From positions 1 to 24,300 of IMG/VR virus record IMGVR_UViG_3300020045_002203: a DNA stretch of 24,300 nucleotides. One strand, written 5' to 3'. Under the pieces are notes generated by a model, which searched no databases, was not told the DNA's origin, and saw only the letters and a program-made list of their open reading frames with translations. Made by a program: the position numbers and the translations under genes. Within the stretch, counting starts at the first letter, position 1. Each line of letters begins with the position of its first letter. Below, in pieces: positions 14,198-17,208 of the stretch. This stretch comes from a virus (lineage: Duplodnaviria > Caudoviricetes).

Positions 14198-14775
14198 TGG
14201 CTGCATTCAATCCAGCGGATTATGAAACCGTTGCCGAGCGCATCAAGCGCTTCTACGCCGACTATCCAGAAGGCAGAATTATCACTAAGAATCAGACAAC
14301 TAAGCAAGACCGCCTAGCAAGCACTTGGGTTGTCAAAGCTTCTATCTTTATTCCTAACTGGCAATTTGCCGATGAGAGTAAATACCTAGAGCAGTATGTC
14401 CTAAAAGCAACTGGCCTAGCCTTTGAAGTAGATGGTCAAGGAATGGCTAATAAAACCTCGGCGCTAGAGAATGCGGAAACCTCGGCTATTGGTCGCGCAC
14501 TCGCAAATGCTGGCTATTCAGGTGACAAGCGAGCCAGTAGGGAAGAAATGGAAAAGGTTGCCCGAGCTAATGCGCCTAAGAGAGATTGGCTTGCTGAGGC
14601 TGAAGCCTTTGCCCTTGTCTATGATGCAAATGGACTCCGTAAACTGTATTCAGAGGCAGTCGCTAACCGAGCTTTGCCAGACATTATAGAAAAGATAAAG
14701 GCTTATGGACAGGATGTCGCTTCAGGATCACAGGATTCTCAGGCTGGCCCTGATAGAGGTAAAGGAGTTGCATAG
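14197..14775 (+). CDS. Single-strand annealing protein (Rad52/Sak-like)
   Basis: YETVAERI, ATGLAFE and ENAETSAIGRAL motifs; adjacent to the exonuclease as in Red-like pairs. Confidence 0.75.
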   Translation: MAAFNPADYETVAERIKRFYADYPEGRIITKNQTTKQDRLASTWVVKASIFIPNWQFADESKYLEQYVLKATGLAFEVDGQGMANKTSALENAETSAIGRALANAGYSGDKRASREEMEKVARANAPKRDWLAEAEAFALVYDANGLRKLYSEAVANRALPDIIEKIKAYGQDVASGSQDSQAGPDRGKGVA

Positions 14776-14908
14776 TGAACTCATTGCCAACAACCAACTC
14801 ACAACAGCAACCAGTCTTATCCCCTGCATCTTTGACCGAGCCGAGCGACTCCATACCGGCAGATACTATGACAGGGATAGTCCAAGAACTCCACCGCATT
14901 CGGGCTGA
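14705..14908 (+). CDS. Hypothetical protein overlapping both neighbours
   Basis: 67-aa amphipathic ORF covering the gap 14776-14867; start uncertain (14705 or 14714). Confidence 0.45.
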   Translation: MDRMSLQDHRILRLALIEVKELHSELIANNQLTTATSLIPCIFDRAERLHTGRYYDRDSPRTPPHSG

Positions 14909-15663: not shown

Positions 15664-15989
15664 TGACACCTCGCGAGTTTCAAAAGTATCTTGATCGCGA
15701 TGGTTATGCCTGTTGGCATTGTGGAACAACCGAAACCCTAGTGCCTCAGCATCGAGCTGGGCGTGGTATGGGTGGCAGTAAAAAACAAACACCAGCAAAT
15801 ATTATTGTCTTATGCTCGCTGTTCAATGGTCTGATTGAGTCTGATGCTAAAGCGGCAGGTATGGCTTTGCGCTATGGATGGAAAGTTTCAAGGTATGAGA
15901 AGCCTGTAGAAAAACCTGTGTATAACATTGTGGAAGGCTTGTGGTATTTCCTAAATGATGATTACACGCGACAAGCTGTTATAGAATAA
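15663..15989 (+). CDS. HNH endonuclease
   Basis: RDGYACWHCG...QHR..RGMGGS....NIIVLCSLFN. Confidence 0.8.
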   Translation: MTPREFQKYLDRDGYACWHCGTTETLVPQHRAGRGMGGSKKQTPANIIVLCSLFNGLIESDAKAAGMALRYGWKVSRYEKPVEKPVYNIVEGLWYFLNDDYTRQAVIE

Positions 15990-15999
15990 AAAGGTAAAA

Positions 16000-16051
16000 C
16001 CCCAGCGTGACGGTAATCACCTGGGGCATGACCGACTAATAAGGAGTCAGT
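16000..16051 (+). promoter_or_regulatory. Two-hairpin structured leader overlapping the SD of the GIY-YIG gene
   Basis: CCCCAG-c-GTGA-cggtaa-TCAC-CTGGGG (10 bp, one bulge), then GACT-aataagg-AGTC containing AAGGAG; TAGAAT at 15982-15987 upstream. Confidence 0.65.
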
Positions 16052-16552
16052 ATGTCTAAGCCTAGCCCATCGGGCAATATCAGGCAATTTGAGCCACAGG
16101 TTTTATACCGATTCTGGCAAAATGAAACTTTACTTTACATTGGCATAAGTCAATCTTTTCTTAGCCGAATGGATCAGCACTACGCAACAAAAGAGTGGTT
16201 CAAATTTATTACTAACATTACTCTTGAGCATTTTCCTACTCGCTATGATGTAGAACAAGCTGAAAAGCAAGCAATCAAAAAAGAAGCGCCTATGTTCAAC
16301 TTGGTTTACAACACTAAGAATCTAAAAGGCATGACTCAGGTGACTAGACTAGAGAACCTATTACCCGATGATTACTTTTACAATTTGCCAGAAACCAAAC
16401 AAGAGCGTAAGGTATTCATCGAAAGCCTAAAATCAGAAAAGGGTGGCTATACAAGACTTACTCTTTCTAAACTCAGAGTTCCTTATCCACCGCCTAAAGC
16501 ATGGAGAAGTAAACTAATCGAGCATGGCAAGTTAGTAACCAAAACTAAATAA
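16052..16552 (+). CDS. GIY-YIG nuclease domain protein with an extra basic C-terminal module
   Basis: VLY...LLYIGIS...R..QH...AE..AI...P.FN pattern; C-terminal GGYTR..L..L.VPYPPPKAWR. Confidence 0.8.
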   Translation: MSKPSPSGNIRQFEPQVLYRFWQNETLLYIGISQSFLSRMDQHYATKEWFKFITNITLEHFPTRYDVEQAEKQAIKKEAPMFNLVYNTKNLKGMTQVTRLENLLPDDYFYNLPETKQERKVFIESLKSEKGGYTRLTLSKLRVPYPPPKAWRSKLIEHGKLVTKTK

Positions 16553-16558
16553 GCACCA

Positions 16559-16890
16559 AGTCAGAGGCCAGAGGCCGTTAGCCTGACTATAAGTCAACTT
16601 CCTGACCCTGATCCGGCCAGTTATCGAGCTTTAGAGGCTGCCGATTTACCATGCCTAAATAATCAAGTTAGGCTGACCGTAGGGAAAGACCACCGCTCAT
16701 AAAAACAGAGCGTAAAAGAGATGCATATTTGGTATGAACACACATCGCCTCATACCCCTGGCCTTACATGGACTATGCACCTAGTCAACCTGCTTATACA
16801 GGGCGCGATTCAGGGAAACCTGACAGTGTTGTAAACCTATACCGTACCTATACGGCTGGACTACAAGGCTGGCTTACTTAGCCAGTTTTT
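16559..16890 (+). ncRNA. Candidate large structured non-coding RNA or structured origin (unassigned)
   Basis: No convincing ORF. Stems include GCCTAA/TTAGGC, CGCTC/GAGCG, GGTATGA/TCATACC, GACTA/TAGTC, CCTG/CAGG, TCAGG-GAAA-CCTGA, and CCGTA/TACGG nested in TTGTA/TACAA; long-range AGGCCAG/CTGGCCT. Confidence 0.6.
16867..16890 (+). terminator. Intrinsic terminator-like hairpin
   Basis: CTGGCT-tactt-AGCCAG followed by TTTTT. Confidence 0.65.
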
Positions 16891-16935
16891 GTTCCCTACC
16901 CGAAACCTTCCGGCTGATACTGCTACAGTTATTGA

Positions 16936-17208
16936 ATGCTGGAAGAACAGAAACTTGTCTGCAAGAGATGTGGCTTTACTGAGTTTGTTCCGGCTGATAA
17001 GCGCAAGCGCAAAGATGAACTGTGTGTTGATTGTCGAAGAAGACCGGCTAAGACTATTAACTATGGGCTGGATAAGTCTTGTAAACCCTGGGGCGGAAGC
17101 TTTGATTTAGAGGACAATCCGGTTGAGTGGGGTCATCTTTTTCTACCTGGCAAGCGTGTTTGTGGTCACCGAGATTGTGTTGAGTTGTCGCACATTATTG
17201 TCGACTGA
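16936..17208 (+). CDS. Cys-rich zinc-binding protein
   Basis: CKRC, CVDC and C...CGHRDCV..SH; preceded by TGcTACAGT-N6-ATG. Confidence 0.7.
   Translation: MLEEQKLVCKRCGFTEFVPADKRKRKDELCVDCRRRPAKTINYGLDKSCKPWGGSFDLEDNPVEWGHLFLPGKRVCGHRDCVELSHIIVD

Follow-up and report, generated by a model that had tools for sequence, protein, structure and literature searches.

The stretch of DNA analysed here (24,300 nucleotides, hereafter the window) is a 24.3-kb fragment of the genome of a small tailed phage, estimated to be 78% complete. According to our protein scan, this phage encodes WhiB, a YqaJ exonuclease, a GIY-YIG endonuclease, SSB, and RusA. A scan of 15 window proteins revealed no initiator, helicase, primase, or polymerase, and the initiator and DnaB profiles run over all window ORFs returned no match, in agreement with the first-pass annotation, made from the letters alone, which had recognised none of these proteins. 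Between the GIY-YIG gene and the gene encoding a Zn-finger protein lies a gene-free element of about 360 bases (16559-16916), which we also find in other small freshwater actinobacterial viruses. Of the gaps between same-strand genes in the ORF list, the one that contains it (16553-16935) is indeed, as that annotation had noted, the longest, and a second, independent assembly contains 16047-16947 with 22 differences from the window. Since the sequencing runs containing the Zn-finger gene are freshwater and the closest cultured kin of this gene are in phages of Pontimonas and Microbacterium, the phage probably has its host among freshwater Microbacteriaceae. A small ORF of 67 aa (14705-14908), in an alternate frame over the junction of the annealase and the next gene, occurs in 6/7 genomes with the element and 0/5 genomes with an initiator, and has no family match. 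For this and the 90-aa Zn-finger protein, a protein-atlas look-up pointed to no replication function. The features of the locus are collected in Table 1.

Table 1. Features of the element and its surroundings (window coordinates; pairing percentages refer to alignments of homologues)
Feature	Position	Strand	Remarks
Predicted -10 hexamer TAGAAT	15982..15987	+	GTTATAGA.T context also in L021, L023, L203
Nuclease-cassette leader: hairpin and second hairpin hiding the ribosome-binding site	15999..16051	+	Fold z=-3.18
GIY-YIG endonuclease	16052..16552	+	PF01541, E=6e-6
5' domain: P1 16559-64/16583-88, P2 16566-69/16573-76	16559..16602	+	Both 100% paired, 23 sequences
Pseudoknot 1	16578-81/16598-601	+	78% paired; one clean G-C/A-U exchange, 12 vs 11; weak in window
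Hairpins P3 and P4	16602..16645	+	92% and 94% paired
Conserved P4 loop [G/T]T[C/T]AGA[G/T]	16630-36	+	Module in 27/30 family members and 11/13 cluster A origin regions
Hairpins P5 16653-73 and P6 16694-712	16653..16712	+	Equivalents 89% and 100% paired, 20 homologues
Purine segment GTAGGGAA	16679-86	+	Complementary to tail 16892-99
Core: P7 16722-27/16774-79, P8 16731-37/16750-56	16722..16823	+	Equivalents 86-99% paired; window by position
Pseudoknot 2, bulged C at 16804	16744-49/16802-09	+	Equivalent: 6/8 pairs compensatory; window by position
Inserted hairpin in core	16789-802	+	
GNRA hairpin P9	16810-23	+	GNRA loop called in 14/29 elements
Conserved CCT(T)ATA box, then repeat copy X1 (16853-58)	16842..16858	+	
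Last hairpin P11 and U-tract	16867..16890	+	Terminator-like in window
Pyrimidine tail (16892-99, complementary to 16679-86), then second repeat copy X2 (16911-16)	16891..16916	+	Predicted DNA-opening site
Predicted extended -10 promoter TG-C-TACAGT, leaderless Zn-finger/ssb/rusA transcript	16921..16929	+	From sequence; similar homologue hexamers by eye
Conserved 90-aa Cys/His-rich (Zn-finger) protein	16936..17208	+	Synteny marker; in element and initiator phages alike

In 22/29 elements, P1 is preceded by a TANNNT hexamer that ends 5-16 nt ahead of it, compared with a background of 0.11. This -10 hexamer adjoining the element is absent in the window itself, where a GIY-YIG cassette appears to separate the homologous hexamer from the element; the context of the predicted hexamer upstream of the cassette is found 10-13 nt ahead of the element in L021, L023, and L203, and the hexamer is likely the promoter of a transcript running through the GIY-YIG gene into the element. 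A GIY-YIG gene is directly upstream in 4/30 elements (the window, L157, L164, and L185), all of one subtype, while the remaining 26 come after methyltransferases, HNH genes, or unrelated genes. In our view, the endonuclease is no obligatory part of the element and is probably a homing nuclease that has entered between the latter and its promoter. The two-hairpin leader of the cassette, with the ribosome-binding site in a stem, also precedes an HNH-like gene on another contig (L008, 2820-2881); leader and gene together make up a nuclease cassette that is mobile and has translational damping built in. In addition, L164 (3197-4139, minus strand) carries a recombinant element after its GIY-YIG gene, with a 5' half near-identical to that of the window and a 3' half of the L021/L025 type, which fits co-conversion by homing and shows that the halves of the element are exchangeable.

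Homologues of the element, collected by pattern scans and subsequent profile filtering, occur on a further 31 contigs, of which 16 are viral and 15 metagenomic; two of the homologues are truncated by contig ends. A search based on SSB yielded eight loci, all bearing a related element ahead of the same Zn-finger gene. Chance pattern matches that proved not to be elements comprised all 42 loci in bacterial genomes, 62 of 78 loci in metagenomes, and 105 of 108 matches to the 3' pattern. Six unrelated viral contigs (L315, L317, L340, L342, L373, and L382) with telomere-like short-repeat arrays were among the chance matches to the 3' pattern. The dense folding reported by the first-pass annotation was borne out, as 16559-16890 on the plus strand has a z-score of -3.29 with 0/100 shuffles folding as well; the minus strand also folds better than shuffles (z=-2.80, 1/100), the z-scores are weak in some family members, and they do not discriminate the strand. 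No conserved ORF crosses the element, only 237 of 1319 pairwise indels being multiples of three, and the Rfam scan gave no relevant match in the window or its homologues, so that two checks proposed in the first-pass annotation turned out in favour of a noncoding, unclassified RNA. Likewise, we detected no match to the covariance model of any family in Rfam 15 (among them ribozymes, introns, RNase P, HEARO, GOLLD, ROOL, ARRPOF, GEBRO, and Polynucleobacter-1), no tRNA or tmRNA in the element, and nothing meaningful by blastn against cultured phages and plasmids. A published description of the family was not found in the literature searched, mostly openly available papers, with Rfam as the catalogue of RNA families covered. 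In a metatranscriptome assembly, contigs lie over ssb and none over the element, a result from one sample and assembled contigs alone that is uninformative on expression; of the three RNA-labelled runs examined for expression, two were probably DNA.

Compensatory changes among the homologues back about ten helices and two pseudoknots. In the 5' third (23 sequences), pairing amounts to 93% and 17 of 27 pairs are compensatory, with 20-47% pairing for slid partners, and in the middle part (20 sequences) the corresponding values are 91%, 36 of 45 pairs, and 35-44%; covariation, another check put forward by the first-pass annotation, is hence found in both parts. Since the structures were derived from the same sequences as those counted, and relatedness inflates the shuffle control, the exchanges at individual pairs are the better evidence, as in P1 (AGTCAG 16559-64/CTGACT 16583-88), which is 100% paired with 4/5 pairs compensatory. 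The counted 5' alignment includes the window row and the counted middle alignment does not, and the middle helices of the window were therefore assigned by position. In pseudoknot 2, the loop of P8 takes part in an 8-bp pairing, and a long P7 encloses P8. G-U pairs on the plus strand are frequent in the middle-part alignment, and invariant unpaired bases are present among the homologues.

All inverted repeats listed in the first-pass annotation are present in the sequence, although the homologues support only part of them. GCCTAA/TTAGGC, CGCTC/GAGCG, GGTATGA/TCATACC, the GAAA-capped hairpin, and the last hairpin are supported through their equivalents in homologues, and TGCATA/TATGCA, which had been proposed as an alternative pairing, sits where the conserved helix P7 lies. 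Instead, no support was seen, upon inspection of the alignment by eye, for GACTA/TAGTC, AGGCCAG/CTGGCCT, and CCCTGA/TCAGGG, nor for TGACT/AGTCA, which is displaced by P1. The two pseudoknots, the conserved loop at 16630-36, and the tail to 16916 with its covarying direct repeat were not part of that description.

Two features of the 3' end covary between elements. The hexamer X1 recurs as X2 51-62 nt further on, beyond the last hairpin, with a spacing that follows no helical phase. The two copies are identical at 6/6 positions in 24/29 elements and at ≥5/6 in 29/29; over 8 distinct variants, 46/48 positions agree compared with a permutation mean of 30.6 (p=1/40320), the anchor of X2 having been defined independently of the letters of X1. 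A ninth hexamer variant, found after this test in L318, is again identical in both copies, and no common position was found for a site within the RNA complementary to the X hexamer (best, 6/13). The other feature is the complementarity of the purine segment to the element's own tail, for which the duplex energies of 13 representatives sum to -215 kcal/mol versus -176 kcal/mol when permuted (p=7e-5). The last hairpin is present in all full-length homologues, where the U-tract is mostly weaker. In the window this hairpin looks like an intrinsic terminator, so that the tail and X2 would be largely untranscribed, which points to their pairing as RNA-DNA, with intramolecular RNA pairing as the alternative.

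When the loci of the Zn-finger gene were inspected (the best 80 of 87 matches, giving 79 loci), 10 were found to carry the element and no initiator or DnaB gene, 68 to lack the element and have upstream a lambda-O-like initiator and/or DnaB, and the remaining one, with only 632 nt upstream, to have neither; the element loci rank first in this search because the query came from an element phage. For these loci, this answers in the affirmative the question, posed by the first-pass annotation, of whether relatives carrying the element lack a rep gene. The PHROGs labels of the exchanged genes are replication initiation (lambda O-like) and DnaB-like helicase, neither of which was detected among 105 of the 233 ORFs of four complete element genomes, taken from outside the structural module. 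The domain DnaB_C is absent from G001-G010 and the initiator domain HTH_36 from G001-G009, the latter being present in G010 and in 5/5 control genomes; six complete element genomes (G001-G006, 98-100% complete) thus have neither initiator nor DnaB. Conversely, the element is absent from four near-complete initiator genomes and from phiPsal1. Initiator and DnaB are the only sense-strand families found in 4/5 initiator genomes and 0/7 element genomes, while several families of 57-97 aa occur in 5-6/7 element genomes and 0/5 initiator genomes, none of them in 7/7; one such element-specific small protein could be an unrecognised replication factor. The tree (88 columns, long branches) needs two exchanges, with one also possible, so that the exchange rests on few independent swaps, about two, and the genes flanking the element vary between lineages.

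G010 carries the element on one strand and, on the other, a short initiator accompanied by iteron-like repeats. Its two opposed early modules and two annealases suggest a mis-join, and we consider this genome a probable chimera. The initiator piece looks like a 13-kb phage; at L213 7207-7690 it has an HTH_36 initiator gene (117 aa), behind which lie three to four direct repeats of 16-19 nt and an A-rich tract, and the rest of the contig is the opposed piece bearing the element. GC skew shows no sign change at the element and is uninformative. The head module of G001 differs, and among the genes of this element phage are those for an RNA ligase and a polynucleotide kinase (L262, 17729-19605).

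RNA-based phage origins are known for prophage maintenance in cluster A. In five non-RepA mycobacteriophages, the ~600 bp upstream of parA express an RNA and are sufficient for plasmid replication without any ORF; these origins are antisense to parA of parABS and maintain prophages, and their deletion leaves lytic growth normal, with no structure or mechanism given in the available part of the report (PMC7157519). We compared 13 cluster A origin regions with the element family. The loop hairpin [G/T]T[C/T]AGA[G/T] occurs, in the same variants, on the RNA strand of 11/13 of them and is missing from the origins of Et2Brutus and 40AC; the loop pattern was set before the cluster A regions were examined, the module descriptor partly after both families were known. 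By chance, the loop module appeared in 6-20 of 3000 shuffles, and the loop and 5' modules in order in 0, 1, and 0 of 3000, where the 11 loop-bearing regions, being homologous, count as one event. The 5' P1-A-P2 descriptor has a match at the expected place in 6/13 regions. Like the element phages, the cluster A phages concerned infect actinobacteria and have no Rep protein, and their origins are ORF-free; a further hairpin precedes the loop hairpin (11/13), several of them share the 5' P1-A-P2 module, and the box and hexamer are repeated, by eye, after a final hairpin and pyrimidine tail, the hexamer being invariant there. However, the cluster A origins are parA-antisense prophage origins, whereas the element belongs to an early operon, in place of initiator and DnaB. 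Neither parA nor an integrase was detected in the set of 105/233 ORFs mentioned above, from outside the structural module of the four complete element genomes, and one ParB-like domain was found in G001, beside terminase. Similarity between the two families was detected neither by blastn nor by nhmmer, covariance models of the element family against cluster A were not significant (best E 5.4), and in the reciprocal search the element matches (E 1.7-5) ranked below unrelated ones. In view of this lack of a significant profile or covariance link, the relation is one of shared design or remote kinship, not of membership. The cluster A origin regions (L271-L283) have clear covarying helices of their own and no Rfam match in the six scanned. 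Et2Brutus and 40AC have the 5' module in common with the others and differ downstream, which suggests two types of origin RNA.

In ColE1, an upstream repeat segment of RNA II pairs with the template strand near its 3' end. The ColE1 sequence has G6 at 926-931 and again, close to the 3' end, at 1175-1180, and the element has the same relation of an upstream segment identical to a downstream one, as a relation of sequence alone, with the hybrid predicted. ColE1 is, moreover, an initiator-free replicon with a long folded transcript from an upstream promoter (PMC5043065), although RNA II measures about 550 nt and the element about 360, and the repeat of the latter is a variable hexamer with copies 51-62 nt apart. 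The ColE1 RNA II-like option of the first-pass annotation was not upheld as far as sequence kinship is concerned, as there was no profile match, 11/14 members fell within the shuffle range, and a resemblance of the 3' end noticed by eye failed against shuffles. Polynucleobacter-1 (RF01718) shares the freshwater setting and, by eye, a UUAGAG hairpin and GGAGAYA in some alignment rows, and its table row assigns no function (PMC2864571); it belongs to another host group, and its model gave no match at E≤10 in 5 element genomes. ARRPOF, GEBRO, and PAGEV are structured motifs of 223-349 nt associated with replication regions (PMC5737381), but they are from other phyla and the element has no Rfam or plasmid match. 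By-eye likenesses to motifs of RNase P, group I P7, group II domain V, and HEARO were dropped, since they are not conserved across homologues.

Given the fold, the exchange of genes, and the two covarying features of the 3' end that we observe, the element probably acts in cis as an RNA-based origin for lytic replication. The first-pass annotation had offered such an origin among its options; its RNA part is supported by covariation and the absence of an Rfam match, while the origin part is inferred from the exchange in the initiator's slot and the modules shared with cluster A. The element apparently represents a novel RNA family and, within RNA-based origins, a novel variety. As to the mechanism, we tentatively propose, at somewhat less than even confidence, a clamp on both DNA strands, formed by X1 with the template strand and by the purine segment with the non-template tail. 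Host RNA polymerase would transcribe the element from the TANNNT promoter, and the folded RNA would present X1, for which, as X1 and X2 are identical in sequence, the template strand at X2 is a possible partner; on the other strand, the purine segment could pair with the pyrimidine tail that separates the last hairpin from X2. About 25 bp would be kept open as an R-loop immediately beyond the terminator-like hairpin, and host Pol I would extend a 3' end left by termination or by RNase H, with the helicase loaded by the host restart primosome on the displaced strand, helped by phage SSB; these latter steps are modelled on ColE1 (PMC5043065).

Among the other explanations, the one we take most seriously, while judging it unlikely, is that of a regulatory or stand-alone RNA (an antiterminator, early-operon leader, or protein scaffold) in phages that replicate otherwise, for instance through recombination-dependent priming or with a small initiator that escaped recognition; the exchange would then reflect shared ancestry. 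The few independent swaps, the position of the element between promoters in early regions, the presence of exonuclease, annealase, SSB, and RusA in all these phages, the element-specific small proteins, and the co-occurrence of element and initiator in G010 are all compatible with it. It is, however, at odds with the flanking genes varying between lineages and with the lack of an element-specific protein common to 7/7 element genomes, and it leaves unexplained both the covarying direct repeat and the modules in common with the tested cluster A origins. The latter are transcribed (PMC7157519), which also speaks against an origin made of DNA, be it single-stranded DNA folded into a signal for priming or primosome assembly, or repeats bound by protein. 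We hold this to be distinctly improbable, even though covariation does not separate RNA from single-stranded DNA (PMC5737381), both strands fold, and direct repeats are typical of DNA origins, because a -10 hexamer stands at a set distance in 22/29 elements, GNRA loops and many plus-strand G-U pairs are present, and the distance between X1 and X2 is variable, at 51-62 nt, and keeps to no helical phase.

The two remaining explanations had both been raised in the first-pass annotation. For a ribozyme cleaving or processing the transcript we found nothing in support beyond its compatibility with the size, the two pseudoknots, the invariant unpaired bases, and the RNA ligase and polynucleotide kinase of G001; as no Rfam ribozyme or intron matches, no gene is interrupted by the element, and the exchange of genes would be left unexplained, it is very unlikely as the main function, though self-processing could be one step of primer making. 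A guide or scaffold RNA of the adjoining GIY-YIG nuclease is scarcely credible. The element begins 7 nt past the GIY-YIG stop codon and four elements of one subtype come after such a gene, but the varied upstream genes of the other 26/30 speak against a fixed nuclease linkage, and the L164 recombinant, in which a window-like 5' half is joined to another 3' half, is what co-conversion through a homing nuclease would be expected to yield.

Recognisable replication genes are missing from many small tailed phages, for which an RNA-based origin, i.e., a folded RNA in the initiator's slot, is a candidate answer. We venture, as a rather doubtful generalisation, that such a "ribo-initiator" supplants initiator and phage helicase in lytic phages through a two-strand grip and forms a superfamily that includes the cluster A origins, in which case it would provide the missing mechanism of the latter. 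The loop hairpin and the repeat pair are mutable predictions, applicable to the existing Mycobacterium smegmatis origin plasmids, and a protein-free replicon of 0.4 kb might serve as a vector for freshwater Microbacteriaceae. As a minor observation on annotation, the homologue of the Zn-finger gene in phiPsal1 (L099, about 26740-27000) is left unannotated in the GenBank record.
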